Origin: Vermamoeba vermiformis
Taxonomy: Eukaryota
Assembly: GCA_045837725.1 (NCBI GenBank)
Contig: JBEWZL010000253.1
Span: 1-64,000, forward strand
DNA: 64,000 nt
Direction: 5' to 3'
The notes under the pieces are model-generated. The model saw only the letters and a program-made list of their open reading frames with translations, searched no databases and was not told the DNA's origin. Position 1 is the first letter of the stretch. Each line of letters starts with the position of its first letter. The position numbers and the translations under genes are program-made. Positions 4,861-47,300 of the stretch are shown one piece after another.

Positions 4861-5165
4861 CTTTTTGAATTGAAAAGTAAATAGAACCGATTTCTGTCGG
4901 AGATTTTTTCCGACCGCGGCAAAGTTAAGCAAGTCAATCTCACCTTGACATATTGATATTATTAACCGTACGCTTATAATACTTGGGTGCATCTTAATGC
5001 AGGTATTGCTTTGGAGTAACACTTGTCGTGACATCTGTCATTTAACGGATCTTGATTTTACATGTACGTTATTGGAAACAATTGCAACTATAAATATCTA
5101 TATAAATGAGGGATATAATTGCTAAATTTAGCCCAAAAAGATCAATTTTACTCGCCGCACAAGAA

Positions 5166-5996
5166 TTACAAAAGTAAAACAGCTGATAAAATGCTGGTGA
5201 AAGAAACGGCAACTAGTTTACCAGTGCTGCTTGCTTTAGGAGTAGGATTGGCTTTAGGCGTGTTCGTATTGGGGGACGTAGGAGCTGTTGGCGATAAAAT
5301 TGGACCAGATTCGGGTTGGATCGTAGGTTCGGATGCAGATGGTGAATTTTGAGGTGCATCTACACTGCAAAAAGCATAGACAGAGTTGTCGCATGTACCA
5401 TCTGATCCTGTTATAGACTCGATCACATCGCCAGCGCTGCAATCGACGGATGTGTGTCTCTCGATCGTAATGTTTCCGTTAGCGTTGCAAGTGTTATTAA
5501 TAGAAATTGAATAAGTGGATGTAATGACGTTCAGGCAAGCCGTAGTGGTATTGCGATGGACTAAAATCAAAAATTGTCGGTTAACGATTTTGGATTTACA
5601 AAGATAAATAAATTAAAAATACCAGTAATTACTTACAAATTACTCTTTCATCAAGCATGGTGTCATTACATTCAGAACCCATAAATCTCGAAACGTACGA
5701 GAAATTGTCGACGAGGGACAACGAAACGTTGCAAGCTACAGAAACCCAAAGATCCCCGTTTTGTGTGCATGCTCGCTCTGAGCAGCCATCTGGGATGATA
5801 CCAATCTATCATAGCTAATTAATCTAAGTGATTTTAGCGAGGGCATTTACAATATACTGACTTGGATCTGGGCAACGAGAGATTCGGTCGTGTTGCAACC
5901 TTCAGCGTTGTAGTATTGATGCAGCTGTGACATTGGCTGCGCTACGACGCAATGCACGGCGACATATAGAATAGCGAAGATGAGTTGTGGCTTCAT
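5166..5996 (-). CDS. Secreted, probably GPI-anchored Cys-rich surface protein, copy B
   Basis: MKPQLIFAILYVAVHCVVAQ; shares YYNAEGCNTTESLV, ITGSDGTC and PSASEP with copy A; ends KASSTGKLVAVSFTSILSAVLLL*. Confidence 0.75.
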
Positions 5997-6367
5997 TGTT
6001 GAAATAACTGAAACATAACGCATGCGACATCAAACCACAAGCAGCACAAACAGACGCGCCAACAAGATCTTATCCATTTGAATTTCTAGATAAAACAGGC
6101 TTTGAAATGAAATCTTGTTAATTTTCCTGCCTAATCCATGGCAGTTGATCGATCGATCGGATATTCATCAATTTTCTTCGTATTTGCAACATTTCGCGAG
6201 ATGTTTTGCGGATAACGCGTGATCACGACTAATAATGTTAACTTATCTAATCAATGCTAATAAGATCAACAATTTTGACATCGTTGGTCAGTTCGCCAAC
6301 TGCATCCAAGCCAAAATAAAAGTCACATTTACTGTACAAGGATTTAATTCTGATAGTGGAACTAGAA

Positions 6368-8551: not shown

Positions 8552-11458
8552 ATGGAGAACTCTGTCAGCGAGGTTTCGAATCTGAAGGATTTTCGGCAGC
8601 TATTTTTGGAAAAATATCCGCAGCCCACGAATTTATTTAATATGGGTGGTAGTTGCACCCTGATTGCGCAAGTAAGTCAGCATATTTATTTAATTATTAA
8701 TAATTGAAAATGATTTTTTGTGAGTCTTGCGCCCCAAATCCTTGCCCAGTCATTCTTACGTTCTTCTCAGGCCTTAGAAAGCAAAAATTGGGACGTTGCA
8801 AAACGCTACTGCATTATTCGTCACTGGTATATAACCAAATACTGCGGTAAGCAACAAACGGAAGCTTTCTGGCCAGATCTGGAAAACAATTTCGAAACGA
8901 CGATCAAATCTTACGAAGACAAATACAATTTAGATTGGAGCGAGTTATTAAGTAAGAAGCCATTATTATGGCTATTCATTTTATTCTAATTTTTTTTGTG
9001 CAAGATGCGGAGTTGAAATTTACGCGTGCTCGTAGCACTCGCGAATACGTGCAAAAAATACTTAAGGCATTAATAGACAATAATATGATCACACTCAACG
9101 ATACAATCCATCGATTGAAGGTCTTTTTCAAGGCGTTTGATCTTGGCGCGAAGTTTCAAGAACCGGAGTTCTATCTCAAAGGAGTAACTTATACAGAGTC
9201 ATTGGAGTATTATATAGCTACTTCGAAGAATATTAGAAAATCAGATCGACTGCAGATCTTGAGTTTTTTAGCGAAGCGCGGAGCACTTACGTTAGAGCCC
9301 AGCGGATTCCAAAAAATATCAACGCCATTTATGTTGATTATTAAATCTAATATACTGGCATTGAAGATATTTTTGAGGCATCCTGAAATTCACAAACGTA
9401 AGAAAAAAAATTGGGATCGGATCCAAGGTGGATCTGCCAAACAAGTTTCTTTAATATAATATGACCATATTAATCGATTTATATAGTTAAGGATTATCGA
9501 GGAAAAACTATACTGCATCATCTTTTCAAGTATTATCCGATGATGCCCTTTTTGAAGAATTTTACGTACGAGCAATTGAAGTACATGCTTAAACAAAGGT
9601 ATAATATTTATAATATTTATAGTAATGACGTGTTTGAGTAATTTTATATGTCGCAGTTCGGAAAAATCTGAAATCAGGCAGTGGAATAACAGAATAATTA
9701 TTAAAGAAACTCCGCTCGACGTTATGTTGTCATCTCGTGGAGTTTATCCTTCAAGTACGTACCGGATCATTATGAAATAAGTACTTAATTAACATTTATT
9801 TTATTAAGTGTTTTTTCGGGCCATTAAGGAGCTAATTCTTGAAAGACAAATAGTTGGTGAATTTTTAAAAAAGCCGACATATAGCACTTTGGGATTTCAA
9901 GGAAGATATTTCTTGGCTAGCCTAGGTGTTCGAAATGATGACATACAGATGGTATTACACAGTACGTAGTCAGAGGAGGACAAAAACGAAATTTGTAGCG
10001 AACAGATGCAGATCTTATTTCTCGTTTAAGCGAATCGTTATTATATAATAAGTATTCTACGTTATATTAATACTAATATATATATTTATTTTAAGATTAT
10101 GCAAAGGCAGTGAGGAAGAACAAAGGGAAAGCAAAATTAATCTCGCCGGGAGATACAACTTTTCCATTAGAGTCCTTGCCATTGGAAATAGCGCACCTTA
10201 TATTTGTTGAACTGGACTATGCATCAACTCGTAGTTTATTATCGGTATCAAGAGCTGTATTCAATCTCAAAACAAAGTTCAGCGAGGTGATGTACAACGA
10301 GCTCATAAGAAAAGAATTTCCAGCGAATACAGGCTACAGCGTAAAAGGACGACGGGGCTATTTCAATCTGGCAAAGTAAGCGCATTCTCAAGCAGATCCG
10401 CTCAACTTAAAATTTCGAAGAAAAATGTTTAAATTTTTTATTTGTACAGGCGTTATACGAACTGGAAAAACGGAGTATTTAATGTTCGACAAATCGAATG
10501 GTCAAAAACTAGGCCACGAATTGAACCTAGGATGTGCACTATGGATGAAAATTGGTTAGCTTTCAGAACAGATCGCGAGTTCAAATTATGGGACTGCCAT
10601 AACGACGAGATACATCCCTTGGATGGGTTCAATATCGACACCTTAACTTCGATTTCATATCTTGAATCGCGCCCAGGAGAAATTCCAGTCGTAGTTGGCT
10701 TTTCAACGAATCAGTACTCCGTAATTGTAACCGGCAGATCCGCTCAGAAAGTTATCAAGAACGTAACGGGACCTGGTTCAGGAGGATTATTCGCAGAAGC
10801 TATTGATAATGACCGCGTCTTCATCGGCGGAAGTAAGTTTCAATCCTATGCCCAAATTAGGAAACTAACAACTTTAATTTTTTAGTTGGTCGAGTTTACA
10901 GCGTTGAAAAAGAAAAAGAAGTCGGCCAATTGCAAGTTGAGTCTTATCGTATGACACACGGCAAATTGAATCCTCTTAATGATTTAATTTTTACGTACAT
11001 GGTCAACGACAACGACAAGCTTATCGCTGCTTTTGATAAGAATTATACAAAAGTGGCGTCTGTAGCTGTAGAGAAAAACTTTGACGGTGGATTCAGATTC
11101 GTTGATGAACATACAATTGTAGCGACTCGTTTCGATTGTTCGGCAATTTGGGATCTGCGCAAGTCAGATCAGCCACGAGAATTCGTCAATATGAGGGTAA
11201 TCACATTATATTATTCCTAATTAACTAGATTTAACGTATTCTAATATGATTCAGATCGACAACATGTACTGTAACCGTTACGCGCTAACGTCGTACGCGG
11301 AACAACGACAAGCAGTGATTTGGGACCTCGTAACTGGCCAATGGGAGACAAGCATCATATTGCCTGATGATATTCGGTATCAACCCATGGGCAACTCGAG
11401 ATACGTCTGTTGGGAAACCTTCAAACCAATCTTTTGTTTGTTGGATTTCCAAACTTAG
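8552..11458 (+). CDS. Degenerate ankyrin-like region + F-box + WD40-like propeller protein (probably one gene)
   Basis: F-box FPLESLPLEIAHLIFVELDYASTRSLLSVSR at ~10160-10255; WD-like ends (KLWD, AIWDLR, VIWDL); upstream TPF/TPL ankyrin-like motifs; a phase-1 intron 9962-10095 links the upstream exons to the ATG-less F-box exon. Confidence 0.55.
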
Positions 11459-11557: not shown

Positions 11558-13800
11558 TTAAAAGAATTCAATCTGCTTCTCTGCAGGATATTCAACGGAA
11601 TAATGATATCCGATCACTTTTTCTTTGCCACCAGCGACACTCAACGTCCATTGAAGATTGTTCTTGTCATCACGAACGATGGATTTATCATTTTCTTTGA
11701 TTTCTGGTTCATGCAGCTTGACTTTGATCGATTCATCTTGCGACGTCGGACATGGTTCCGTAATTTGAATATCGATCTAAAAATAGGTTAGAAAAAACGC
11801 GGAATAATTATTTGAATTTTTTTTAACTTACAGGGATAGGCTTGGTATTCTTAATAGTAATAGATCTCTTCGTATTTTCGATTTTGCTCTTTCTAATAAT
11901 GCCAGTCTTGCCAGTGACAACTTCTTCAGGTTTAATAACCAATTTGACGCTGTCATCAACGCCCAAATAGAATTGCAAATCTTCGTCTTTGTTCGTCAAC
12001 CCGAGGCTGGATGTGGTCAAGAAACTTCCGTTCAAGAACACATTGATGCTGCCAGGCAACAACAAATAAGCCGAATTGTTCTTGCCGCTGGCTCGCATGT
12101 ACACGCTGCTTGAAAGAGATGGCACTGCTTCATGAACAATTTTCATGTCCAGATTGATCATGGCGATGCAGATCTGACGAAAAAAAAAATTCATTAGAAC
12201 TGCATAAGATAACTCGCTCTATACAAAAAAATGTCTGTCGGTCGTAATATATTTCAAATATTATCTTAATATATATTCCTGTTTAGTAGTGTTGTACTCA
12301 CTTTGTGGCCCTTGCCATCAGCAGGAACATTGCACGGTTGAGGCACGTGGAAAGTAACGCTGCCCAGCACGGACTGCTCAACAGTGGAGGTAATGATAGC
12401 AACTTCGGGCAAAGGTTCGTTCATGGAGTCATCCTCATTGTCAATGTACGCATCGTCGACGCTCATTTTCTCCTCGGATATCATTGCTCTGGCTGAGCTG
12501 TACGATGGTGCTGCTTTGCGATCACGACGTTTTTCGCGGTACACGACTGGTTGGTGGATGCGCAATCGACGCGCGCCTAATTTGGGAGGCGTACTGCCGA
12601 CAGCAGGGCGAGCAGTAGATATCGCCATCTTGACGTTGACCCAATCTTCTGATGAGTTGTTACGCACGTCGGCAAAGTACATCAATTGGCAGCTCAACGG
12701 ATCTGGCGGATTCATTGCCACGCGGATGTCGTAAGAAGTGCTGAAATTGACTTGGTTGACCAAATAAGTCACTTGAAGGACTAGTTTAGTGTCGCCAGGA
12801 GAGTAGAAAGTGATTGAAAAGTCGCGACGGGTATAAGAATGAGTGTAACCTCGATTGGTGATTTCGGCGCGGATTTGATCTCGTTCTTTGTTGAGAGCTA
12901 AAAGAAAGTATTAACCAACTGATATCATATTAATATTATATGCGTACCTTTAATTTTTTCTTTAATTTGGTGCATTTCTCCGTTCAAACGAGCCATGGTT
13001 TCACTGAAGAATTTAAAGTAGTTGGAGACTTCTTGAAGACCCATAATATTGTTCTCAGTGATGTCCTTCTTATTTTGTGATACGTCATTAAGCCACCGTT
13101 TCTCTTCCTAAGGATTAAGACCAAGATCAGAACGAGATCCATAAAAATTTAAATTTCGGATGTGAATCTGTTGTCGTACCTCTAAGCATTGCATATTAGT
13201 CGCCAAAACTTCAAGTTCCACGGGGATCTCTTCCAATCTGTTGGTTAAATCAGGAGTGACCTCTTTTGGAGGCGTAGTAATGGTTTTAGTTTCAAGACCA
13301 ACTTCGAAGATCGTTGCGTGGCCGGCACCGCCTGACATTCTAAAGCTTTGCTCGACCGCTAAATTATTACGTTAATACCATATTTTATTAAAAATATTTC
13401 AAAAAGCTTACCAGTAGTCGGGAAACCTTGGATGGTGATTTTTTGAACGCCTAAAAAAATTTAAATAATTTAGTAAATTAACGGCATACTTGGTTAATCA
13501 GATAATATGATCAGTAGTATAATTACCTTCTTTTTCAATTTTTGCGGTGACTTTGCGCGTAACTTCAGCTCGATCCGAATAAACCGTTACAAATTCAACT
13601 GGGCATTCAGTGATATCCTTTTCATGCACTATACCAGTCTGTCTGGTCATTAATTGCATAATATCGGCGACCACATTGCCAGAAGAAGATTTTCGGCTGG
13701 ATTCCTTGTCTTTCTTCTCGCGTCTTGGAGATCGATCCTTTTCTATGGAGGGAACTGTAAGGCTCGATGACGACGATGTCTTATCTGCTTTGTCTTCCAT
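11558..13800 (-). CDS. DUF4140/DUF4139 protein (mucoidy inhibitor MuiA-like / F37C4.5-like)
   Basis: VTVYSDRAEVTR (DUF4140 start); VRNNSSEDWVNVKMAISTARP, VPADGKGHKV, NNSAYLLLPGSINVFLNGSF and FYLGVDDSVK (DUF4139); ends YSVEYPAEKQIEFF*. Confidence 0.85.
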
Positions 13801-13989: not shown

Positions 13990-15721
13990 TTACTGCCTTG
14001 TTTCAAAATTCTTAACTGCAGGGTAGGCAGCCATCATTATCTCCTGAAATTAATGTTAACATCGCTTAATTATGATCGTACAACTACATACTTGATTCGC
14101 GTGAATAGCATCGCGTAATGGAGAGATTAAAGCGATTAATTCTTCGGCGACAGCAGGTTTCAACTCATCCGAAGAAATTTTCCCTATGGTATATTATAAG
14201 AACTTGCTTATCATGTTGATTATTACTTACTCTCAAATGCGCTTTCAACTTCTTTGTAAGTCCAAAAAGACTCGATAAGACCATCGCGAGTGGTCACTTG
14301 GAAGGACCGCTTTTGACTTTCTATGCGTCGGAAAATAACGTACTTCAGCATAGCAAGCATGCCATTGCCTTCTACTTCTCCCTCAATGGCATGCGCAAGC
14401 TCTAGCTTTTGACGGATGACTTCGTCAGTGTCGTCAAAGTCGATCTTCGAAAGAGGTTCGCTCGATGACATTTTTCCACTTTTACCCAAACCTGGCACGA
14501 GAGGATTCATTAAATGCATTCTAAAACATAAAAGTAATATTAATACAAAGATATAATATGATCTAAGCGAGATCCAGTTCGACAATTTTCTTACCTTCGT
14601 TTGTAACCGAGTTTTGGTAAATGTTCTCGTGCAAAAGCAAATATTTTTCGCTGATCGACACCACCGAACTGAATATCAACGCCTAAATATTCTTCGTCGA
14701 GTGCTTGGAGAATAGGGTAGAGCAATGAAGACATTAGAGGGCTAGCGACTTGTTTGACGACTGCAGCACCGGCCTAAGCATGCAACCGAAGTTAGAGCCT
14801 TATGCTAGGTACTTAAGTTAAATTTTGAAAACATCATAAACGATAAGAAAGACAAGTACATTCTGAAGCGTATCTGCCGTCGTTTTTGGGTTGATAACCA
14901 AATATACGTATTTTCAATAATAATAGCAAATATGAAGGGTTTAAAGCAATTATAGGCGTTATTTACGTGAGAGGTATGCTCAGAGGTCAATATTGCGCAC
15001 ATCCGGTATAAATCGATCGTGTATCTGTTGCGTGCTTCGTTTTTGTTCGAAATATCGGGTAATTGGTATTCAGAGCCTTTAATAAACTTCAATTTATCCA
15101 AAGGTACGCCAATAACTTTCAGCATTTCTAAATCAAGAAATGAATTTAGTCGTCTAGTTACTTTTGTAACGCGAAATAATACGGCATACCTTTAATAATG
15201 AATTGGTACCATTGGACACGAATGTTCAATTGATCCCAGTCGCTCTTCATGTTGTCGAGGAAAGCGTGCAAATCCGCGAACAAGATCGTCACCTCACAAC
15301 CAGCTGAAATATTAATTAGTTTCCTAGTAGATATTACAGGCGTTAATTACTTACCAGCCAAGAAGTCAGCAATTTTGTACATGGGAACAAAGTAGCCCAA
15401 GTGAGGTTTTCCTGTTGTTGCTGTTCCCCAGTAGATGCGAGGGTGTTCTTTTTCGAGCAAAATATTTTTCAACGCTTAGATACAATAGGTTGTTAATATA
15501 ACTGTTCAGTTTGGATTGAAATAACGCTTTTTAATATTTTAATTTTAATTTTGAAAGGGCGCCAACCTAGATGTGGCTTGGTTGTTTATGGATACGAGTA
15601 AATTATCGTGGAAAATTCATATTTTTATTTTACCTGCTGCACCATCTTCGTCTTTAGGCAAAGTTTCGCTCAGATTGCGCAAGATTATGTTGACTCTTTC
15701 GTCGATCGTGTTTTTCTCCAT
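13990..15721 (-). CDS. YARS: Tyrosyl-tRNA synthetase paralogue, short form lacking the C-terminal EMAP II-like domain
   Basis: [15 protein letters not shown] (HIGH motif), [53 protein letters not shown]; ends [13 protein letters not shown]. Confidence 0.85.
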
Positions 15722-25075: not shown

Positions 25076-27492
25076 TCACTTTGACTTTTTAATACTATTC
25101 TTGGCATGTTCGTTATTGATCACGTGGTCCAAAAACAGCTCGTGAAGTGTCTGTTCTTTTGGGAGTGTGAAAAGTGATGCTGCTTTAGAGACCACTTCAT
25201 CGTACTGTTTCGAATGATCTTTTAATTCAATAGCGTTAATATTGTACGAATAAATAGTAGGCGCCGAGCTTAGTTACCTCTTCGCCATATATAGGAAATT
25301 TGGAAAGTTTTAGCGGAGTTACTGATCACGCGATCCACTCGTCCAACACCGATGATTTTTCTCTTTTCTATAAGCATCAGTTTACCGCTATAGTTCTTTT
25401 CGAATTCACTTGGTTTGTATGGCTCTATGTCATAATGAATCAACGGCAATAAAATCGCTGTAACTTTTCTGTTTTGTTTTCTCGGAGGTCGTTCCGAACT
25501 TTTCGCTTGAAATTTCAATTTCATCTCCTTGACTTGCTGCTTATATTCCATCAGCTTCATTCTATACCCTTGCTTATTGTGCCTATATTCTTTTTTCTTC
25601 GGCTTCTCGACTTTGAACTTTCTAGTAGTTGTCTTTGCTGAAATTTCTCCATCTTCGTCCAGCTCTGGAAAAATCCACCATAAGATGCACGGAATACGAG
25701 ATGAGCCGTAGAATATATTATAGGTTTGATGCTGCACTAATCTATCGGGTTTCATAACGACAATTTGGGCTCGAAAAGCTATGGTACAATTCACCATAGG
25801 CGTTTCCGTCGGTTTGATTAAGTAGCTGCACTTGGGATATATATCATATAACGGGACATTCTTAATATTAATACCAATAATATCGCCTGAATAATCAATT
25901 TAAGTTGAGTTCAAACAAGATCCAGAAAATTTTTTACCTGGATAGGCTGTTTCAAGCGGCATGCAATATGATTCAATCGATTTAGCTAGAGTTCGAATTC
26001 CATCTGGATGAATGCTGATCGTACTGTTTGGAGTCAAAGTGCCACCTAAGTAAATGACAATGTAATTACTATTATTTCTCTAAACTGATTTTTTCAATAT
26101 TTTACAATTACGTACTGATGACGCGACCTTCAATAACAGTGCCTATGCCAGCGATCTTATCGGCGTTTGTGAGTTGAAGGCGCAAAGGGGCCTCACAAAG
26201 TTTTTTGTACGACGATGAGTCAAAGTTAGTTCGCAACTGATCGTCAAGAATGAGCTTTTTCAGTGAAGCACCGCTGAACCACTCGTACTTCGGTGTGATG
26301 TTTGCAGTGATGTTGGTGCCAGTTCGGACATTTATCGGAATAATTGTATAGCACATGCCAACTGTTTTGTTCAGCAACTTTGATATTTTGAGCTTTGCCT
26401 GATTGAAAGCTAATATATTTAAGCATTTCAGTGCTAGCACAACATCTATTGTTGAAAAATCTATACGCGAATTGTATCCGGTGTCAAAGTGTCATAAATT
26501 AGTTTGACACGTGTCAAGCAAAAAAACTTACCGTTACACAACCCGCTTGCTTCTTTGGCGGTCACATTTGACAAATCAATAGCGACGATGATATTACGAG
26601 CACTCATCATGAAACAACAGCCAAAGATCATTTCTTTAATATCTTCTGCGTACGCGTCGATTTCTTCCGGATCCACGATCAACAAACACAAATCCGCCTA
26701 AAAAACGAAATAATTGTACTCATTAATAGTTGAATTCATAAAAACGGACTGGGAAGACATAGATCTACAAAAGCAAAACGAGATCCGGATCAAGGTGCGT
26801 ACCTTAACTGCCAAAGTGTATAATCTCACTCGCAAATTGTTCGCTGTTGGTGCTTCAATCAATGAAACTTTTCTTTCTTTCGCGACAAGCGATGGAATAT
26901 GATTTTTGAAAGGTGTAATTTGCACAACGTTTTTCCTCGTACGACCGGTTGGATTTATTTCGGTCGTCGGCGCTTCACTGAAAAGCGTTGAAGATACGAC
27001 CGCAGATCCTATAACCTCCGTCATTAGTAAATTTGTATTTATTGAAAATTTAATTCTTACTTGAAACCGTCGTAGTTAACGAAATTGAATCTGGTAAATA
27101 AAAATTAGTAATAAAAACAATAATTAAAAAATATTTACTATATTTAGACGGAAGTGATAAGACTAGAACGCGGGAGTGGTCGCCACAAAGTCGGATCTTC
27201 TTTCGGTGCTCGAGAATATATTGGGCTAGTCCATGATACCGCTTATTTACTCGCACTAATTTATTTAAATCACGTCTTTCCAGATTATCGAGGATTTCTA
27301 CCAAGATCTAAACCAGAAAATTAATTTTTAAATTTGAACTGCAGTAGAAAAAATTAGATAAATAGAATATGGTTTTGTATTCTATAAACGTTAATAAACT
27401 GCTAGAAATCTTGTTATAGAGCAAATGTATACCTCGTTCGGGAGATCAACCAATAATGATAGTCTTCGGGGCACCTCTAATACTTTAAGCAT
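25076..27492 (-). CDS. F-box fused to degenerate eEF1A-like translation-factor body, copy 1
   Basis: LVDLPNE|ILVEILDNLERRDLNKLVRVNKRY (F-box), then ADLCLLIVDPEE..RNIIVAIDLS, IIPINVRTGTNI, EAPLRLQLTNADKIAGIGTVIEGRVISGTL, AYPGDIIGI, FRAQIVVMKP and GKLMLIEKRKIIGVGRV, collinear with eEF1A domains I-III. Confidence 0.8.
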
Positions 27493-27685: not shown

Positions 27686-30289
27686 CTAATCTTTACACTG
27701 AGCACGGCAAGTATTTTCCATCCAAGTTGATCCAAACGGACACTCAAACTCGTTGTTCCGAGCATCGCAATAGACCAAGCTGTCAGGATAATGATTGAAG
27801 ACGTCACGCCACGAATTGAATCGGTTGTTTGAAATGTCTAGTAGCACTACTTTGGTGAGTTGATAGTGTGGAATGCTGAAGTGTCCGTTGAACGTATTAT
27901 TTGCCAAATTTAGGTACATCAAACTTCTCGATCTCGTGGCAGCCATAACATCGCCGGTAAGCATATTATTTGAAAGATTAATATACTCGAGGTTGAGGCC
28001 GAGGAACGGAAGTGTTCCGTTGAGCTTGTTGTAGCTCAGATCCAGTTTGACGAGAAATGCTTTGCCATCGTCAGGAATAGTCCCTTCAAGTTGATTATGC
28101 GCCAAGAAAACATTGTTGATTTCACTGTTGAGAAAATCTCCTGGAATTGTGCCGTAGAAATTATTCTTCGAAAGATCTATCTCCTGAAGTGCAGGATATT
28201 TTGCTATATTTGGTAATGTTCCCGTGAGATTATTGCTCGCTAATTTTAGCACTTTCAGCTTTTCAATCTTCGAAAACTCTTCTGGGATCGTTCCGGTCAA
28301 AAAGTTATTCTGCAGTTCGAGCCTCTGAAGCCACGTGATTTTGTAAAGTGACGACGGCAATGTGCCATTCAAGTTGTTGTAACTCAAATCGATATTAATC
28401 ACCGTTAACATCACGTCGGGAAAAGTCTCGTTCAGCCAATGAGCTTCTTCGTGACAGTCCACGCCGGTCCATTTACAAATCGAGACACGTTCGTCGAGCC
28501 AATTCCTCCTAAACAACCACGTGTCACCATTCGTTGCCGTATATAAGTCCTTCAAAGCCACGATGAACTCCGGTGGAAATTTTTCGTTCGCAGCGTTGCC
28601 CGAAGAGTCTGGGTTAGGTCCATCTCCAAGTGCGCCACTGAAGAGCGGAATAACTCCCGCAAACGCCAGAGCTGTGATTATAGCGACTAGAACGGTCACC
28701 GAAATGATACCAAGAAGCAAGAACTTTTTCGTTCGAGATCCGCTTTGGTGGATATGACTGTGCATGGGTGGAGGTGTAGTTGACTTCGTGGCACTGTCCT
28801 TGCGAATAAATTGGTCGTACATGTCGTCGATAGTCTTTTGAATGCGTTCTGTCTTTGAACGAAGATCATTGATGTCGGTGAAATTGGCACGAATAGACTC
28901 GCTTAGATATGGAATCAGCGATTCATAGTCAACGTGCAGGATACCTAAGTGACACCGTCATTAGTTTTATAATCAATAAAATCATATTTGATATCGCAGT
29001 ACGTACCATCAATGAGCTGAACTGCCTCGGGCACAACACTTTCCACTTGTTGTGCAATGTAGCCAACAAATCGTCTGTTCGTGTCTGGATGCACCCCTTG
29101 TTTGAACTTGTACTTAACACCGTCGATTTGAAGTAGCGTATCGCGGCAATCGTAATCTAAGGTACGTGTGTCAGTTCACATTACACGCGATCCGCGGAAG
29201 TCACACGAAGATTTATAGGTACGGCAGTACTTCATAACATACTTAGCCGACACCTTGTACTTACCTTCGGTTAATAATCGAATGTCCTCTTTGATGTTAA
29301 TGTCCGAGGATTTGTAGAAGTTGAGTGCTCTGAAGTTGCCGATCACTTCTGCATTGCCGTTGTAAAGGACCATATACTGCTCTCCGTTAGTATTCATGCC
29401 CAAATATTGCATTTCCGCCCCGCTATAAATGAACAGTTATTATGAGCCAAAAGAGCTGCGTGATCGAACAAAACGTACGCAGCCTGCATCGGGTACTCAG
29501 TAGGCTGTTCTTCCTCCGAGTATACTTCAATGGGTGCGTTCATATTATAGATTGGTTGATTATAATTTGATTGGTTATAGCCATTTTCTAAGTATGGCGA
29601 GGACAGCTCATCCGCAGGACTTTCGGCAACATAAGAAGCAGTCGGTGACAGTTGACTAAGCGGTGATGTTGATACTACTTCTGCGACCCAAAAAACGGGT
29701 ATAATAGCTGGTAAAATAAATGGTTAGTGCCCGTTGCAGGGTGTTCAATTGAATCCAAAAATAACTTGGATGCAGTAAATCTTAAATAATTCCGGAAAAT
29801 TGCAAATCACTTACTAGTTGATTCTGTTCCTCCATTTCGATTTTTGGGCAATATTTGGACGACGTTGCTGAATGCTTGTTTGATGATCTGGCCATTTTTT
29901 ATTTCGTTGACTTGGATTCGTGTTTGCTGGGATCTGTATTTTCTAAAATCAAACACTCTTGGCGGTAATTTAATTCTAACTGCAATTCCTTCTACTTCTT
30001 GTGTTTCATCCGACCGTTGAAATCGAATTGGGTTTCTCTTCGCCCAGACGAAGCAATTAGGCAACGAAATATCGTCATCCGTATATGACTGTTTGAAGAC
30101 TAGTTGAATATGATATTGAAGGGTACTATCAGCGGTGTTTTTCTCGGCCAAAGCAAATCCGAAGTTAGTTCCGAGCAAAGGTACGGCTTCAAGATTTGGA
30201 GGGCCGCTGATAGGAATATGCAAATCAAAAATATTGCGAATACGTGCGCTGTGGGCCATTCTTTGTTGTGTCAAGTTAAAAGGTGACAT
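27686..30289 (-). CDS. MYRF/MrfA-like self-cleaving membrane protein: N-terminal domain + Peptidase_S74 (ICA) + coiled coil + TM + plant-type LRR ectodomain (5 exons)
   Basis: Four GT-AG introns (first 29814-29708) join ORFs 29807-30289, 29176-29412 and 27686-28822 in frame. The product contains FYKSSDINIKEDI...FVGYIAQQVESVVPEAV...LHVDYESLIPYLSESI (S74), a TM (FLLLGIISVTVLVAIITALAFAGVIPLF), ALKDLYTATNG..W...W....ICKWTGVDC (LRRNT_2-like cap) and LxxNxLxGxIP repeats. Confidence 0.85.
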
Positions 30290-30402
30290 TTTGGTGACGC
30301 CTCAAAGCATGAAACAATTCACATTTGATCCGGACCTAAATACCGTCCGCTATTGTTTTTGATTCGAAAGAGATTTAATGAGAATTGTCTACGTAAACTA
30401 TT

Positions 30403-31770
30403 TTATTCTTCAAAGGCGAACCTCCCATCTTTATGTTGAACGATTTTAAACCAATCGCCTCGTTCGATCAGTTGAGAAATTTCATTGTAGTTCCTGATAA
30501 TGCAATCGAAGAGCTTATCGGCGCGACCAAGCCTGTTAAATGAAGGTACAGTAATATGGCTGAGAATTAAAGACCAGATCTCGGCGGGAAATTTGCGTGC
30601 ATTTGCTAGCATTAAAACGATAAATGCCACTTCTTTGCGGCGATTTCGAATTTTCTCTTTGTTCTCGTTTAATCTATGCGTTAAAGGGTGCTGATTATCC
30701 ATATAAAAGCCGGTGCACCCAAATGCGAAGATCGACGGATGCATCCATAAAGCTTGTTGCGCGTCCGAAAACTTGAAATCTTCAGTTGTTACGTTGTACA
30801 TAACCAACTTTGTAAGCGTTGTATTCTTTTTAAGGCCTTCCCAAAAATATTGCGTTATTCCTCGACTTTCTCCGTTTGAAATGTTTAAAAAGGTCAGCCG
30901 AGTCGTTTGCTCCAAATATTCTGCTAGAATTTGATGGCTTTTCTCTGATATATGATTTCCAGTTAAATCTAAATATTCTATGCTGTCGTTTACCATTATT
31001 GATTTGATAATCGGGGCTACATGTGTATCAGACAAATAACACGAGTGTAAATCCAGTTCGGTCAAATTATTGTGCATTCTTAAACACCGTTGGAAGCTGT
31101 TAATAGATAATTCCCCTTTGATACTTAAATTTTGTAATTTTAGTCTCGTTATCGATTTGTTTTCCGCAACGCCATCAAAAATTTTAGCCCATCCGCCGTC
31201 GCTCGTTTCAAAGCCTCCCATTGATATTCCAACGATAAAATCTTTCAGTGAATTATTCCTTTTTAGGAAATTTGCTAGCGCGTCTATTGTTTCTTCGTGC
31301 GCGCCCAGCTGACTGCTTGAAACTTTCAACTCTGCCAGCCGGGAATTTTCCAAAGCTGTAAATAAGTCTTTTGCTTTTGCATATGAAAATACGCTTTGGT
31401 CTGCAATTGTTAGTGACTTTAATTTGGGTATTGACTTGACTAGCTCCACGATCCATTTCATCGCATCTGGTTTCTGAAAAGTATTTATGAACGTAACCGC
31501 TTCTAAGGTCTTAATAGTTGCTAATGATCCACATATCCATCGGGCAGATTCATCGCATAATAAATGCTCGTTAATTAATATTTTTTTGAGGGCTTTGTGA
31601 TTTTTGAGTTTTTTTGCAACGGATTTAGCTTCATTTAGAGTCATTATAAGACCACTGTGAACAGAACAAATAAGGTCAAGTTCTTCAAGATAAGGATCTA
31701 AAATAAAATCCTTCTCCTGGGTAAGCGCCATTTCAATCCCGTCTTGATCAATAACGACGACCGGATTCAT
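30403..31770 (-). CDS. Ribonuclease-inhibitor-type LRR protein with a C-terminal F-box-like motif
   Basis: 455-aa ORF with NxSLxxLxL repeats (NNSLKDF, NKSITRLKL, NNLTELDL, NDSIEYLDLTGN, NTTLTKL) and KFPAEIWSLILSHI near the C-terminus. Confidence 0.75.
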   Translation of the reverse strand: MNPVVVIDQDGIEMALTQEKDFILDPYLEELDLICSVHSGLIMTLNEAKSVAKKLKNHKALKKILINEHLLCDESARWICGSLATIKTLEAVTFINTFQKPDAMKWIVELVKSIPKLKSLTIADQSVFSYAKAKDLFTALENSRLAELKVSSSQLGAHEETIDALANFLKRNNSLKDFIVGISMGGFETSDGGWAKIFDGVAENKSITRLKLQNLSIKGELSINSFQRCLRMHNNLTELDLHSCYLSDTHVAPIIKSIMVNDSIEYLDLTGNHISEKSHQILAEYLEQTTRLTFLNISNGESRGITQYFWEGLKKNTTLTKLVMYNVTTEDFKFSDAQQALWMHPSIFAFGCTGFYMDNQHPLTHRLNENKEKIRNRRKEVAFIVLMLANARKFPAEIWSLILSHITVPSFNRLGRADKLFDCIIRNYNEISQLIERGDWFKIVQHKDGRFAFEE

Positions 31771-32250
31771 TCTGAAAATCTAAAAAACATCAATTATTAA
31801 TTAATAATAATAATTCTAATTTCAAATCAAATAAGCGTCATCATTAAGTCAAAAAACTAAATCTTGAGTTAAAAATTTTGGCATCTCGTTCCCTCTTCCC
31901 TACCTAACTACAAAGTACTACGGCCGTATAAATTAATTATCTGATCGAAATTACTGTGGTCAACAGGGGTGCGCGTACAAAAATATGACGTTGTAATTGT
32001 TTTCAAATCATCAAAAACACCGAAAACTACAACACGTCATATTTATTCACCTAGGTTTACTTCCTTCTTCGGTGCAACTATTAATCGTCTTAAATTTTAA
32101 CGTAAATAATGCTAAATAAGGAGTCCAAGGTTAGAGTTATCGAAATCTGCTCAGGAAAGAAATAACTCGGAATAAGCTGTAACACACGAAGTTCAATTGC
32201 AAAAAAAATTCTAATTAAAATAGGCGTCGTTACCAGAGAAGGCGTAAGAT

Positions 32251-33974
32251 ATGGTAAGGAACATCTCGATCAAAGTTTATTATTAGCACTGCGCGCGATC
32301 CGTCCCATCAATAATATTGATTTTTTACATCAATAGAAAGGGACCCGTGTCAATTTACCAGATGTCCCGCCAGAGCTTCACGAAATAATCGTCTCGTCCT
32401 TGGACGACAAATCCAGGCGATATATGCGAGTAGCAAGCACTTATTGGTTCAATTTGATCAATTACAACGAGTTTACAATTTATTTTGCACGTTCCACAAC
32501 GCTGCCAGAAATGGTCGATAGATTCGCAAAGTATGAAGGTCCAATAGCCCTCAGATTCAAAAAAGAAATACAAATGGATGCGAACAGGATGGCACAGTAT
32601 TTACAACAACTAACCAACATTACTGGCCTGTCAATGTCGCAAAATGTCAAATCTATCCCATCCAGCCCGGGCGAAGCTCACTACCCCGCGCCGTTCAGAT
32701 TTAACAAATTATTTTTTGACCAAAAGTTCAGCTTATCAACCCTTACAAATTTACAAGAATGGTACGACATGCCTTGCTTTGGTGAAGATCATTTTGAAAT
32801 GCTATTAAATTTTTCGCGCTTGACGAAACTGCGATTACAAGGCAAAAACCGGCACAAAGCGACATTGGAGCAAATTATTATAAATAATAGCAATTTAGAA
32901 GTGTTAGACTTGGACTACAATATGAACGCCAATGATCTGATCTCAATTTTACCGAATCCAAGCCGGTTGACCTCATTAAGTATTCCACCGAGCACATTTA
33001 ATTTCAATGAAGAAGACTATTCCAAATTAGGAAATTTGCGACACCTAAGAATGCACGGAGGATTTTATCGGACATTTACAGCACTCGAATCGCTCGAGAC
33101 ACAAAGTCACTTCGTAGTTTATTTTGATGTTAATACGACATTAACGAGATTGATATTAACATCGTCATCCGATGAGATCTTAAAAAGCAGCTTACCAAAT
33201 TTGGTAAATTTGCACGAGTTAGTCAAGCTTGGGCGAGTTGGCAGATCCATTGACGTACCTTTGTATCTTCAGCCGGACAAATTAACGAAGCTTCATATAA
33301 TGCAAGAAGAAGTAGAGAAGCTAGAGCATATGTCTAGATTGACCAATTTGGAGAATTTACTCATTTTCAGAGCGACATCCGAAACGGATCAGGAGACATT
33401 AGAGCCAATCATGAATTTGACAAAATTGACGCAGCTAAGGCTTCATTGTGACTTAAAGACTGATAATAGCTCGTTCATGACCAACTTAACGAACCTTAAG
33501 TCATTGATCTTGCGCAGTGACTTGACGAACTTAATGACAGCGGATGCAGCAAGTAAATTTTCAAAATTGGAAGAACTACGATTCTGCGAGTACTTTGCGG
33601 ACTCATTTTTAACGAGAATTCAAGCACTTCATCAGCCTACTTGCTATCACACAATATTATCGAACTTCAAAAATTTGACGCGATTGCAGATCCACAACCA
33701 AACACCGGATCTATGGCAGACATTGACCAAATTAAGCAATCTTAAGGCACTGACTATTGGATGGATGGATGCAAAGGATATGCCGGCATTGACGAAGTTG
33801 ACCGCTCTTACTGACTTGGATATTGGGCAATTTGTCATGACTGATCGTGAAATTTTTGCCAAGTTGACCAACTTGCAAAGATTATGGCTAAGATACAATG
33901 ACAAGGACGAGAAAGATTATTTTTACTCGAAGTTGCCGTATTTACATTCGTTTGGGTGGCAGAGAAACCAATAG
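32251..33974 (+). CDS. F-box/LRR protein
   Basis: ATG-only first coding exon (32251-32253), intron to 32336, then KGTRVNLPDVPPELHEIIVSSLDDKSRRYMRVASTYW (F-box) and many LTNLxxLxL repeats. Confidence 0.8.
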
Positions 33975-34136: not shown

Positions 34137-37100
34137 ATGGAAGATAATATTATTAAAATTGTTGCAATAGGTCGTGGTACTAAAAGGAAGGGTGACGAGC
34201 TCGCACAAGAAAAAAACAAGAGACAAAAAATTACAGATCTTTCTAGAAATAACGGTAACTGAGCCAAATTAGAATATTATAAAAAATAATCAATACTAAT
34301 AGCTTTTATTTTTATTGCAGATTTTTATTTCCTAGAATTACCAAACGATTTGATTCGACAGATCGCATCTTGGAGCGAATCTTTGGCGGCTTTATTACTA
34401 TCAATAACGTGCACGCGAATATATAATTTATTTCGTAATGACAATCGTCTATGGCACTCGATCTATCTTCGAGAAGGCGGGATTAATGGTATCAGTATCG
34501 AAAATACGATTGCCCATGATGGTAAAATTAACATTTTTTCGTTGGATAAGGTAATAATTAGCAAACTAATAAATTTCGACAGTTCTTGGGTTCGATAGAG
34601 GCAGCGTTGCTTGGGAACGTGAATCGCTGGCTTGGGCAACTTATGAACACTCATTGACCTCTGACAGTATTGATTTTGCCAACGAAATAATTGCTGAAGA
34701 AGATTCCTATGCAAAATATTTTCCTCTGGGATTTCACAACGGTAAACAAGGGATAGTATCTTTCTTTTTCTAACTTGCTTGTTGTAGACTACAATCCAAT
34801 TGAATATCCACGCAAATATGTGTCGTTCACTGAATACAGTCCTTCAGTGAATTACAAGAAGTTAGCTCTAAAGGCGTGGTACAATTTCAATCAATATGAC
34901 TATTGGAGCGTACAACGGCACTGTGCGCGATTATGGAAATACAAACATTGCACTTGTTTCGGGCTTCCCGATTTGGAAATGAGCAATGAACTCGGAGAAA
35001 AGATAGCAATAGTTGAAACGAACGAAAAGAACGAAAAAGACGAATTTGATTCGAACTACAGCTCACAAAGCGAAAGTGACGATGAAACTTCTTCATTGGA
35101 CGGCGGATCTACCTCTGAAAACTCACTCTCAACGCAAGAAACCTACGATTCGCTCTTAGAGTAAGTAAAATTTTACCTAATTTATTCGATGCTAATCAGT
35201 TTTCGTAGCGATATTTCGGGGAGTGACAATTTTAAATATTTTGCGCAAGTTCTCAGTGGATTACTCGTTGGGCACTGTGCCTCACCGGGATGCAAACACT
35301 CATATCAAATACGAGTACGTTACATATACCGATACTTTTTTTGGTCGTGCTAATCAACTTAAGATGGCCAAAATGTTGAACACAACCGTCGTTCTCAAAG
35401 ATGTTACTGAAGCCACTTTGGATCAAATACGTAACGCAATAGACAACGACGATAGTTTTGAGTGCATTTCAAGCATTGTCTGTGCACTACAAAAGCTTTC
35501 ATTGGACGACTTGTTAACGCTGCACGAATGCGTCAAACAAAGATTTCCTTATTTGGCAACCGTTAGTTCAGGTATTTGCTCTTCGAATGAAAAATCAATA
35601 TTAAATCAATGTTAGTATTGGATATAGAAGAAAATAGTCCGTATGTTTGGCCTTTCTTCGCGAGCCACCATGAAATGCCATGGTCGTATCATTTTCAAGC
35701 AGATATTGCAACGAAAGAAGACCACGAGACTATTCCCGATTGGCTGTCGAGTATGTAAAGCGGAATAACTACCAGCTATCTACATAAATCAAGAAACTAA
35801 TAATCTTTTTAGTTCGTCATTCGATGTTGAAACTGTTTCGCCTAGCAGGCATCTTTTGTGCGACGCCAAATTCTACAGGTACTTAGCGTACCTTTCAACG
35901 ACAATAGTTATTAACTTGAGCCGGGTAGAGTACGGTATTAGTGCTTTAGGTGCCTATATTAAGAGCGTTCTTGGGTCGGTAGTAAGGTCCAAACCTGCAG
36001 ATACGGAACAACTGGAAGTCTCCGAAGGAATGATACTGCATGCGATCAAATCGCCTCTAGACAATAATAAGAATGGAACTACATTGTACAGCCCATCCTT
36101 AGAGTTGATGCAAGATGATAGTATAATTATGTACTCCGACAGTGAACTTTCAACGAATGAAGAATCGAGCTTCTCTGATGCGAGTGAGGAAGACGACCTG
36201 ACGGAGTTTTTGCAAGAAGCTAACAATAAGGGTGATAGCAATGACGAAGAAGATGATGAGGATATTATCGACGACTTCAAGAGCTTGAACGACATGATTA
36301 AGGTAAGATGACACGAGTCAAAAATTTTGCTGATCAACCGATTCTAGAACTCTGTCTCTGGATTAAACGAAGACAATAGTCCATTGTTAATGAAGTCTGC
36401 TGTCGTTTACGCACAAGCCGATGTACCCTACGACGAAATTTCCGATGTTGTAGGGACCGAAGAAGAAGAGGAAAAGGAAGATCAAGAATTCGCCGTGCAA
36501 AGTCAAATGTACTTGGATGAGTATGTGCCACGTAGCTGCATATTGATTTGATGTTTAACTTTTGGTCGGCAGAGATGATGAACTGTTTTCAGCCTTTCCT
36601 GAAGAAGCGAAGGATTTAGAGGAAGCGTTGGAGTATCATAACAAAGCCTACGAAAAATGCTTGAAATTTGAAGCATCTTATTATGGCGTGGTGAACAAAA
36701 ATGATCGAGAATTTGAACTGGATCTGCCGCTAAAAGACATGAACGACGAACAACGAGCTAAAACCCTAGCACTACGACGTACATAGCTTATTTCCATTTT
36801 AATACTAAAGTATTAATTATAGCAATTTAGGAGAAACGAACAGAATTCTGAAAGAGGAAGCCGATAAAGAATTTCAATTCGATTGCCAGCGAGCTGTAAG
36901 CAATAATGACCAACGTGACAAACCTGACATTAATTAATATTATACAGACCAAACGACTCGAAGAAAATGTTGAGCACTACAATCCTATGACTTGTAAATC
37001 AATGGTCATTGTGATGAACTGTCACGGACCGAAATTACGAAGTATAGTTGAGCAGGCCGTTGATATAATAAGTAAGTATTAATCAACTCTCGAGCCGTTA

Positions 37101-44319: not shown

Positions 44320-47300
44320 TTATCCAACGGTACCGTCATTAATCTCGCTAGTAATTTCACCCTTGCTAGTTTTGAAAACGTGCTCTCCAGAAACAACTCG
44401 ACCGGTCGCGTTTGTCTTGAAGCCCTTAAGCACTCGTTCCAGGCGCTTGAAAGTCAATACTGGATCTGGAACACCATTGGCGGGCTCAAACCTATGGCAC
44501 GATTATATTTAGTAAGTTGCTTTTTGTAGCTTCATAAAGTATTTCGCGATCAGCACATCCAAAACGGATCTGAATCTCCGTTCGGCTGCTGTTTTAACGA
44601 GCTACGTTGCTTTAAATATGTAGTAGTAAGTACTTACACTAATTTTTCACCAGCGGGAGTGTCAGCAGGAATGTTCAACAAAACAACTTTGCTTGCATCT
44701 CCGTTAGCGGCAGTCAAGACCATGCCGTTGCTTTCAATGCCCATAATCTTCTTCTTTTCCAAATTGGAAACAACTAAACGAATAATATTAATATAAACTA
44801 TTTTTTTGACTTTCTCTAAACACGATTTTAGTTGCAGCGAATCCGTTAGGCGGATCCAAACTTTCCGGGTGATCGTTGTGTATAATATTACATAATATAA
44901 TATTACGTACCAAGAACATTAGAACCAATAAATTTGTCCAAAGGAATGTGAAGAGCCAAGCCTGAAACGACTTGACGAGGCTTTTCTTCACCAAGGTCGA
45001 TCTCGGCTACGTACAATCTGTAACATTAAACATCTTATTAATATCATGCTATTAACTTATTTAAATACCAATTCAAGTGAATTAATATATACTTACTTAT
45101 CAGATCGCTCAGCCTTCTTGGCAGACAAAACCTTGCCGACACGGAGATCGAGCGAGTGAATGGTGGCTTGAGTGGTGGGAGTGGCGTCTTGACGAGTCTC
45201 AGCCACAACTGGAGGGTAAGACTTGAGGAAGAGCTCCTATTATTCAGATTGAAGATCAGTACGTGCCTCGAAATTTGGACGCAGATCTGATGTTAGACAA
45301 TGGTCACGAGTGGTACTTACTTGGTTAGCATTAATAGCATTTCGCAAAGGAGTAATCAACTTGATCAATTCGCGAGCAACAGCAGGCTTCAAATCACCAG
45401 AAGCCAATTGTTCTATTTAAAAAAATTAGTTTCAGATCACGTGTCACATCCGCTCGATCCAACGATGAATGTTAAATGGAAGTATATTATAATTAAACAG
45501 AATTGATAACTTACTGTCAGCGAAGGCCTTCTCGACTTCTTCGTAAGTCTTGAAGTGCATGTTGCCACCCCACTTCTCGGGACGTTCGACCAAAAAGTCA
45601 CGGCCCTCAGCTTCAATGCGACGGAACAAGACGTACTTGAGCATAGCCAACATGCCGTTGCCTTCGACTTGACCGTCAACAGAGTAAGCTTGCTTCAATT
45701 TTTCTTGAATGGCCTTGTCAGAGTCGTCAAAGTCGATCTTGGACAAGGGCTCGCTAGAGGACATTTTGCCGCTCTTGCTCAAGCCAGGCACGAGAGGATT
45801 CATCAAGTGGAATCTATAATGATGATATTAGTAATCCATAGTTAAAACAGCTGTACAAGTACAAAAAGTTGATCTGGATGGAGATTTGGATCGAGCAAAA
45901 AAAAATCTATGAAGTTCTTAGTGGCCTAACGATCAATAAGTCTTTGATGTAGTCCGTGGATTCTTCAATCGTAATTATTAACGATATTATATTAATTCAA
46001 GTCTATTGAAAGGGTCGTGTACGATGTTTTGAGCGTACCAACCAATTCGCTAGACTTTTATTGTGGTATCAAAATGGTTACTCAAAATATGATAAAATTG
46101 CGTAATTGTGCGCCACGCATTAAAATTAGCGTTCAAACAGCCCTAAACTTGTATTTAACAAAAATAGATCGTGTGGCGCGATCGAGCAAATCAAAATAAC
46201 TGAAAGCAATGTAATGTCGCTCTAAACTCGCTTTGTAGAAGTATTATATTATTACTAAGAGCGTAGACATTACCTCTTCTTGTAGCCAACTCGAGGCAAA
46301 TGTTCCTTAGCGAACATGAAGATCTTTCGCTGATCGACACCACCGAACTGAATATCAACACCCAAGTGTTCTTCATCGAGTGCTTGGAGAATGGGGTAGA
46401 GCAATGAAGACATGAGAGGGCTAGCGACTTGCTTGACGACTTCAGCACCAGCCTAAGCATGCAACTGAATATTAGAAGGCCGATCCGACAATTTAACGGT
46501 ACCCAACTTCTGAGCCGATTTTAAAAGCATGTATACCGCGTTGAATGGATACGGTAATGATATGGCATCGATTATTAATTAATTTGGAATAATAAATGTT
46601 AAATCAAAAAAAAAGGCTGTGGATCCGCAACTTTCAAGCTGTTACACGTACCTTGTTGACGTGCTCAGTGGTGACAAGAGCGCTCATTTTGTAGACGTCG
46701 AGTGTGTATTTAGCAGAGAGTTGGTAGTCAGTACCTTGGACGAACTTCAACTTGTCCAAAGGAACGCCGATCACCTTCAACATTTCTGAACAAAAATGAC
46801 AATTAGAATGGCTAGTTAATGTATTAGATGACTATTTGCAATGATGCGTACCTTTAATAATGAATTGGTACCATTGGACACGAATGTTCAATTGATCCCA
46901 GTCGCTCTTCATGTTGTCGAGGAAAGCGTGCAAATCCGCGAACAAGATCGTCACCTCACAACCAGCTGTAAGAAAATTGTAAGTCTCTTTAGGAACAAAA
47001 ACATAGATATTGTAACTATAACGGAATAATTTATGAAAGAGATTATTTTAAGGTTCGATTTAAGCAATCGATCCGCCGATCTCAAAAAGACCCTCACTCT
47101 TCCGAGGAAGAATTAAATAATTCTGAATATGTCATTAACTTAATAACTTACCAGCCAAGAAGTCGGCAATTTTGTACATGGGAACAAAGTAGCCCAAGTG
47201 AGGCTTTCCTGTTGTTGCTGTTCCCCAGTAGATGCGGGGGTGTTCTTTCTCAGCCAAAATCTTCTTAAGAACTATCAAAGATGTCAATTAATGGGTCCTA

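Follow-up and report, generated by a model that had tools for sequence, protein, structure and literature searches.

Do the five open reading frame (ORF) pieces lying between positions 27,686 and 30,289 of a 64,000-nucleotide (nt) stretch of Vermamoeba vermiformis DNA (assembly GCA_045837725.1, contig JBEWZL010000253.1, positions 1 to 64,000; referred to here as the window) encode a single protein, and what would such a protein do? [quoted passage not shown] The structural half of that interpretation is supported by the results reported below. The functional half, namely, ligand-gated release, transcription factor action, and an immune role, is plausible. We regard it as marginally probable that the product is a trimerizing type II membrane protein that, like MYRF, cuts itself and sets its N-terminal part free, most likely to the nucleus.

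The gene occupies the minus strand (30289..27686), from an ATG at 30289-30287 to a TAG stop codon at 27688-27686. The stop-to-stop ORF track divides it into five pieces in differing frames (29807-30301, 29394-29723, 29176-29436, 28945-29175, and 27686-28957). A search for in-frame GT/AG pairs between these pieces returned one solution each for introns 2, 3, and 4 and two solutions for intron 1. The resulting five exons, joined by four GT..AG introns, form a single open frame of 756 amino acids (aa), or of 747 aa with the other intron 1 acceptor, free of internal stops and frameshifts across the 756 codons and ending in the TAG. Splicing in frame through four canonical introns, as first proposed, was therefore borne out, and all of the peptide landmarks quoted at that stage were found in the joined protein. 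All donors read GTAAGT or GTACGT, and all acceptors read YAG, with branch-point-like CTAAC, CTGAC, or CTAAT sequences nearby.

Exon 1 (29815..30289) provides the start codon and an N-terminal all-beta domain (N-domain; residues 1 to 158, with a core formed by residues 12 to 152 at 29834-30256), its product terminating in the motif LPKNRN (LLPKKR in the family consensus). Intron 1 (29708..29814; 107 nt) has a GTAAGT donor, a CACTAAC branch-like motif, and a CAG acceptor; use of the alternative acceptor at 29681 would extend it to 134 nt (29681..29814). The upstream acceptor, corresponding to the 756-aa model, is preferred on homology grounds: a short [VI]-x-P-[VIL]-x-W motif directly follows exon 1 in relatives, and the window protein has it only with this acceptor. 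Exon 2 (29479..29707, or 29680-29479 with the alternative acceptor) accordingly begins with IIPVFW (29685-29705) and continues into an acidic linker rich in S, P, E, Y, N, and Q, present as originally described. Intron 2 (29423..29478; 56 nt; GTACGT..TAG) is followed by exon 3 (29265..29422), which encodes a stalk segment (residues 250 to 272; 29311-29379) and then opens the ICA domain, including its SDINIK motif. Beyond intron 3 (29157..29264; 108 nt; GTAAGT..TAG), exon 4 (29007..29156) encodes the core of the Peptidase_S74/ICA domain, including GYIAQQVESVVPEAV. Intron 4 (28945..29006; 62 nt; GTACGT..TAG) leads to exon 5 (27686..28944), which comprises the ICA tail and a helix (28802-28942), a basic juxtamembrane stretch (28724-28804), a transmembrane (TM) segment (28646-28723), an LRR N-cap with the CxWxGVxC motif (28451-28579), nine LRRs (27779-28402), a four-Cys C-cap (27689-27772), and the TAG stop codon (27686-27688). 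The junctions of introns 3 and 4 lie in gap-free alignments to three related proteins (P0081, P0075, and P0083), and the position of intron 2 is uncheckable by homology because this intron sits in the variable linker.

Pfam profiles were run exon piece by exon piece, not on the joined sequence. Peptidase_S74 (PF13884), for which the first-pass annotation had called, was found on the exon 4 piece with 42.4 bits against a cutoff of 22 (E = 8.7e-11; profile positions 7 to 57 of 58), profile positions 1 to 6 falling on exon 3. Exon 5 matched LRR_1 (E = 1.2e-21; 72.6 bits against 20.6), LRR_4 (E = 1.5e-11), and LRR_8 (E = 1.6e-11), all above their cutoffs, whereas LRRNT_2, which had also been anticipated, stayed below (E = 0.13; 13.0 bits against 20.7); the CxWxGVxC pair is present, and PF08263 is precomputed for two relatives (P0057 and P0058). 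No Pfam family was found on exon 1, the linker ORF, or the exon 3 ORF, and no kinase family was found in any exon. By these sequence matches, the window protein belongs to the Peptidase_S74 domain family and to the plant-type LRR class.

A feature scan of the 756-aa model described a basic N-domain (isoelectric point [pI], 9.8) followed by a linker of 87 residues with zero K or R (pI, 4.05). The single hydrophobic segment (residues 412 to 437) is flanked N-terminally by basic residues and lies 72 residues past the ICA tail, and the N terminus is without a hydrophobic segment (maximum 19-residue Kyte-Doolittle mean of 0.72 in the first 30 windows), in keeping with the annotated single TM segment after basic residues and absence of a signal peptide. 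The motif scan counted nine LRR units of the LxxLxLxxNxLxGxIP type (residues 519 to 726), matching the earlier estimate of a Cys cap and about nine repeats, with a Cys pair (494/501) before them and four Cys residues (730/739/750/754) after them. Six N-x-S/T sequons are located on the C-terminal side. Charge bias, sequons, and Cys caps are together consistent with type II topology and an external LRR domain. A secreted tailspike-like fiber was considered unlikely, there being no signal peptide and the ICA domain lying on the predicted cytosolic side of the TM segment.

Related loci were sought in metagenome contigs with a pattern derived from six close N-domain sequences and then by local tblastn with the joined model. 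The pattern scan yielded 13 loci, among which several duplicate one another across assemblies (L001/L002/L003, L006/L007, and L009/L010). A Peptidase_S74 (S74) match was present on the same strand in all 10 of the loci having about 400 nt or more downstream of the N-domain, and five loci run on into the TM-LRR part (L004, L008, L009, L010, and L011). The remaining three end too early to show the order, and none contradicts it. L007 and L008 have no intron 4, their S74 core running straight into the ICA tail, and residues 279 to 503 are covered by one high-scoring segment pair in L011. With the L004 ORF as the query, 74 proteins were retrieved at E <= 0.001 among 4435 candidates; 12 of them carry a precomputed PF13884 assignment, and 11 of these 12 also carry LRR families. 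P0081 (807 aa) is a full-length prediction with the N-domain, linker, S74, TM, and LRR parts, and P0083 and P0075, the latter labeled as a Trinity transcript ORF in EukProt, begin within the N-domain and extend to the C-terminal Cys cap. The order N-domain, S74, TM, LRR recurs in divergent metagenome loci and predicted proteins, well beyond what chance would give; the search for this combination outside the window, suggested by the first-pass annotation, retrieved it from metagenome loci, predicted proteins, and one transcript-derived ORF. Public databases already list predicted members of the family under the labels hypothetical or "LRR." No paralogue of the gene was detected within the 64-kb window. 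Two of the metagenome loci hold additional features: L008 contains tandem family members (3581-5638 and 5998-7116, N-domain then S74), the first of which is without intron 4, and in L004, an LRR-like ORF adjoins the family member.

Divergence is unevenly distributed along the protein. Identity to four full-length or near-full-length relatives was 75 to 86% for the stalk plus ICA domain, 30 to 39% for the N-domain, 29 to 40% for the LRR domain, and 23 to 28% for the helix and TM segment, and the linker had no detectable similarity to the linkers of the same four relatives. Exon 3 displayed 88 to 97% aa identity to relatives, with mostly synonymous differences. In the stalk and cleavage exon, comparison with L011 revealed 17 codons with synonymous-only differences versus 1 with a nonsynonymous difference among 38 codons; for the ICA tail, comparison with L004 gave 8 versus 0 among 20 codons. 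Since the differences in the S74 exons are mostly synonymous, constraint acts on the protein, and purifying selection is evident from these codon comparisons. Gene conversion or an RNA element was rejected as the origin of the similarity between S74 exons, the differences being mostly synonymous and nucleotide identity being 64 to 87%. The gene is thus one member of a diversified, probably amoebozoan multigene family whose ICA module has stayed nearly constant as its N-domain and LRR domain diverged.

RNA evidence on the four junctions, sought as proposed at the outset, was thin for the window copy. X9 and X11 are RNA runs bearing the same species label; the RNA status of X1 and X2 is a guess. 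Contigs of X1 and X2 matched parts of exon 5 with 0 differences, and X2 additionally covered 30047-30309. No read or contig from these four sources fell on 29386-30043, a span that includes introns 1 and 2, the exon between them, and the 3' half of exon 1, and intron 3 lies in low-depth bins. The X9 and X11 reads, which are 90 to 95% alike to the window and map almost only to the two S74 exons with diverse loose ends, come from relatives and are therefore silent on expression of the window copy. In this RNA from relatives, a 62-nt skip equal to intron 4 (28944|29007; CT..AC on the plus strand) was found in 2 reads of X9 and 3 reads of X11, and an equivalent joint was present in one X2 contig; no read spans all junctions of the window copy. 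Depth over the S74 exons (29010-29103 and 29292-29385) was 30 to 60 times that of the rest of the gene, with many variant letters in X9, X11, and the X1 and X2 contigs. This suggests that many expressed family genes share a near-identical ICA module in the organisms of those runs. We regard it as nearly certain that the window contains one real gene with the N-domain, S74, TM, and LRR architecture.

The SDINIK motif holds Ser274, the predicted nucleophile and cleavage site (29305..29307), and, five residues later, Lys279, the predicted general base (29290..29292), the Ser codon being where the first-pass annotation had placed it. The dyad is intact, as had been read from the sequence, and its spacing equals that of endoNF (S911/K916), MrfA (S767/K772; motif SDLRIK), and MYRF (S578/K583); in these three proteins, mutation of either the Ser or the Lys residue is reported to stop cleavage (PMC3742443, PMC3828593). 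The window copy and all relatives that could be read across the site (P0081, P0075, P0083, P0050, and L004) retain both residues together with the motif around them, and the variants observed at 29305 and 29308 in the RNA reads of relatives are synonymous. P0081, P0075, P0083, and P0050 match the S74 profile over positions 1 to 57 of 58 with 34.4 to 44.2 bits. The 145-residue stalk plus ICA region of P0081 aligned to the distal subunit of a phage long tail fiber (6f45_A; E = 0.0097) across SDxxIKxxI and GxIAQEVExVxP. The same stretch aligned to the MYRF ICA crystal construct with a mutated cleavage site (7dc3_A; E = 0.032), here over the stalk as well as the cleavage motif and the sequence G-x-IAQ-V-x-x-[VI]-[LV]-PEAV. 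An Arg residue before F-V-G-Y-I-A-Q, near-invariant in the family (R318 of P0081) and present in the window copy, is a possible counterpart of the oxyanion-stabilizing Arg of endoNF.

Trimerization was approached by a three-copy prediction for residues 245 to 400 of P0081, which reached a score of 0.92 versus 0.36 for the best control, with at least 97% of contacts common to the runs and a partner predicted local distance difference test (pLDDT) score of at least 84. In the calibration of the score mark, made with two copies, 21 of 30 same-chain pairs of known structure attained it, as against none of 23 proteins solved as single chains. The prediction may reflect memory of solved ICA trimers, and it is read as a modeled likeness to ICA trimers, no more. 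In the characterized ICA proteins with an intact dyad, trimerization precedes cleavage, according to the same reports (PMC3742443, PMC3828593). MYRF is reported to undergo normal processing in yeast, and one of its fragments did likewise in Escherichia coli (PMC3742443). We consider self-cleavage of the window protein to be likely.

The exon 1 product had 43 relatives in a library of 1.84 billion proteins, 25 of them at E <= 1e-10 and 3 at E <= 1e-30. Most are about 150 to 260 aa long and end where exon 1 ends; they are therefore exon-sized ORFs from unannotated eukaryotic DNA. A search for longer proteins containing the exon 1 product returned 173 candidates, none at E <= 0.001. The alignment combined 36 of the 43 matches with the window copy (37 members), leaving out fragments or multistretch matches (P0011, P0030, P0033, P0035, P0036, P0038, and P0039). 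Three contiguous residues are invariant (D114, F115, and R116), and eight others are near-invariant (F21, P26, F43, G44, W82, F113, S141, and R151). Pfam detected neither NDT80_PhoG nor another shared family in the window domain at E <= 1, nor in the 37 members at E <= 0.1, and no family was common to more than one of the 37 aligned members. By sequence, the N-domain is a new conserved family without a Pfam model.

An AlphaFold2 model of this domain, built with the family alignment, is all-beta (mean pLDDT, 89.8; predicted template modeling score, 0.82), in agreement with the beta-rich N-terminal domain of about 155 aa first proposed. Fold comparison gave weak best matches leaning to immunoglobulin (Ig)-fold (p53-like/Rel-like) DNA-binding domains, such as those of EBF1 (COE), Rel, MYRF, and Ndt80. 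Ig folds of transcription factors accounted for 15 of the 50 fold matches listed, and non-DNA-binding sandwiches at equal Z were also among them. Foldseek returned 0 matches at E <= 0.001 in PDB and BFVD, the rows listed being generic Ig V-type folds with template modeling scores of 0.2 to 0.4. In the ESM Atlas, the best score for the domain was 0.81, below the lead threshold of 0.9, with low recognition (1578). The domain profile retrieved from PDB sequences two chance-level matches only, to Mediator subunit 11 (E = 0.43 to 0.45). Judging by the model, the fold is likely a large Ig-like sandwich. DNA binding by this domain is no more than a lead, drawn from the analogy with MYRF, the basic charge, the acidic linker, and the KKR motif.

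How does the protein compare with known systems? In the MYRF literature consulted, ICA self-cleavage is described as a trait of the MYRF family, in which an NDT80-type DNA-binding domain precedes the ICA domain (PMC3742443, PMC3828593, PMC13294678). The window protein has the same order of a cytosolic effector domain, a stalk, an SDxxxK ICA domain, a helix, a single TM segment, and a lumenal or extracellular C terminus, and it shares with MYRF and MrfA a putative type II topology and a predicted trimer. It also differs from them in several features. The N-domain has no NDT80/PhoG Pfam match and forms its own family, and the acidic linker follows the N-domain, whereas MYRF and MrfA have a Pro-rich region before the DNA-binding domain. 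The C terminus is a capped plant-type LRR domain in place of the MYRF C-terminal domain or of the very short tail of MrfA; among Pfam families, the C-terminal part matched LRR types only and not the MYRF C-terminal domain. The window family, unlike MYRF and MrfA, comprises many diverged paralogues. A protein proposed to work like MYRF and MrfA is thus, at the sequence level, without two of their defining features, the NDT80/PhoG domain and the MYRF C-terminal domain.

The phage endosialidase K1F (endoNF) and the 6f45 tail fiber share with the window protein the Pfam family PF13884 and the cleavage motif; the phage ICA domain is C-terminal and is discarded after fiber folding, whereas that of the window protein is internal and would stay with a membrane stub. 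With the plant LRR receptors GSO1, FLS2, PEPR1, and PGIP, the likeness extends to the repeat type, the CxWxGVxC N-cap, and the C-terminal Cys cap, and GSO1 (E = 5.3e-84) and FLS2 were the top solved-structure matches of P0081. Plant LRR receptors have a type I topology. The window protein has no kinase domain and no signal peptide, and its ectodomain is C-terminal to the TM segment; because it lacks a kinase and has the opposite predicted topology, it is not an LRR receptor kinase. Functionally, the closest parallel for the LRR part is PAN-1, a separate LRR-TM protein that reportedly binds Caenorhabditis elegans MYRF-1 extracellularly and controls its trafficking and the timing of its cleavage (PMC8099431, PMC12803276). 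A surface LRR ectodomain would in both cases be coupled to an ICA-cleaved membrane-bound factor, with two proteins in the nematode and one chain here; the parallel with PAN-1 is one of function. Our literature search found no paper describing S74 combined with LRRs, the PAN-1/MYRF papers being the nearest. A 2026 NAR survey of membrane-bound regulators lists proteins with NDT80, a TM segment, and a "chaperone of endosialidase" domain in four Amoebozoa; its main text does not mention LRR or leucine-rich, and its supplements may list more architectures (PMC13294678).

From these features, we infer topology, trimerization, cleavage, release, and a nuclear, DNA-binding function as follows. The cytosolic N-terminal part would consist of the basic all-beta domain, the acidic low-complexity linker, and a short beta-helix-like stalk. 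The ICA domain and the helix would drive trimerization, after which the Ser274-Lys279 dyad would cut just before Ser274 and free a trimeric N-terminal fragment, of 273 residues per chain, from a membrane stub. That stub would keep the ICA domain, the TM segment, and the extracellular or lumenal plant-type LRR domain with its nine repeats and Cys caps. The freed fragment would most likely enter the nucleus and bind DNA. A nuclear, DNA-binding role for the released part is a tentative proposal, just short of probable when taken alone, and gating of its release by the LRR domain appears unlikely.

If the protein does cleave itself, the released trimer might act instead as a cytosolic adaptor, effector, or structural unit, or it might be discarded, the LRR-TM-ICA stub being the working surface receptor or adhesion molecule. 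We judge these outcomes to be rather unlikely. A discarded N-terminal part is difficult to reconcile with conservation of the N-domain across 43 relatives with an invariant D-F-R, which argues that it is not a throwaway propiece, and with the W, F, G, P, S, and R residues that hardly vary. A pI of 9.8 followed, in the family, by a KKR motif and an acidic linker is the usual makeup of a nuclear factor, and transcription factor Ig folds make up 15 of the 50 fold matches listed. Against this, the N-domain sequence matches no known DNA-binding family, the weak fold matches extend, with no drop in Z, to sandwiches that do not bind DNA, and the conservation of the LRR part with its caps and sequons argues that the stub is selected in its own right. 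[quoted passage not shown]

It is improbable that the ICA-like module no longer cuts and serves as a trimerization device only, in a stable trimeric type II LRR receptor signaling through its attached N-domains. Strong conservation of the stalk and ICA domain would also fit such a purely structural role; however, neither the window copy nor any relative named above as readable across the site has lost the dyad or its flanking motif, the Ser codon variants in the reads of relatives are synonymous, and the intact-dyad ICA proteins characterized so far are all reported to cleave after trimerization (PMC3742443, PMC3828593). A gene model artifact, in which the N-domain, S74, and LRR exons belong to two or three neighboring genes or to a pseudogene, could draw on the lack of a single read or contig across all junctions of the window copy and on the location of junction 2 in a variable linker beyond homology check, but it is highly improbable given the same collinear order in all related loci that are long enough, the existence of one-chain predicted proteins and of a transcript-derived ORF, the uninterrupted S74-to-TM-LRR ORFs of some relatives, the frame open through four canonical introns without a stop or frameshift in 756 codons, and the mostly synonymous differences from relatives.

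The window has a G+C content of 36 to 40% and short introns. Weak F-box and/or LRR matches were found in neighboring ORFs at 10095-10376 (+), 27050-27307 (-), 30403-31779 (-), 32337-33974 (+), 34290-34595 (+), and 60163-61422 (-). As to the F-box-rich and possibly immune cluster of the first-pass annotation, F-box-type matches occurred in 4 of the 6 pieces tested, and only 34290-34595 reached the cutoff; these matches do not amount to an immune cluster. The ORFs at 14226-14675 (-) and 45447-45827 (-) share a tyrosyl-tRNA synthetase (TyrRS)-like stretch around the KMSSS loop, the latter with up to 88% identity to TyrRS proteins; the best named eukaryotic relatives of its exon (45447-45809) are from Paramoeba aestuarina (70%) and Balamuthia mandrillaris (69%), a weak pointer to Amoebozoa. 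The two ORFs may have arisen by duplication of a TyrRS gene or of a whole segment inside the window. A two-ORF unit is present in three copies (25273-26491 [-], 55245-56389 [+], and 58045-59247 [+]) with the common motifs TVGTCYTIIPIN.RTGTNITANITPKYEW and CTIAFRAQI.VMKPDR, and one piece of this family had a weak GTP-eEF1A_C match (E = 0.0052, below the cutoff). The ORF at 12266-12910 (-) matched DUF4139 (E = 3.5e-22; 79.6 bits against a cutoff of 31.8), long, highly charged, low-complexity ORFs rich in K, E, and D overlap in different frames at 49583-50520 (+), and the ORF at 926-1312 (+) may resemble a uracil/thymine mismatch DNA glycosylase, a likeness noted by eye only.

In this family, an ICA module derived from phages has been put to use alongside another kind of cytosolic domain and a putatively ligand-binding LRR ectodomain. 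The N-domain itself, well folded, conserved, and about 150 aa long, represents a family that Pfam does not model and possibly a new type of DNA-binding domain. Paralogues share about 80% identity in the ICA module but only about 30% in the putative sensor and effector parts, a pattern expected of a diversifying receptor family. The protein would offer a one-protein system for asking whether extracellular events control ICA cleavage, as PAN-1 and MYRF-1 hint. In its fullest form, the proposal would be that of a large, fast-diversifying amoebal family of one-chain surface-to-nucleus receptors, in which LRR recognition of a ligand or of cell contact controls ICA trimerization or cleavage and releases a trimeric transcription factor with a previously unrecognized DNA-binding fold; we hold this to be a speculative and unlikely outcome. 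If LRR-gated release is true, one polypeptide would combine the tasks that nematodes divide between PAN-1 and MYRF, with possible uses in innate immunity, the sensing of prey, or the recognition of kin.

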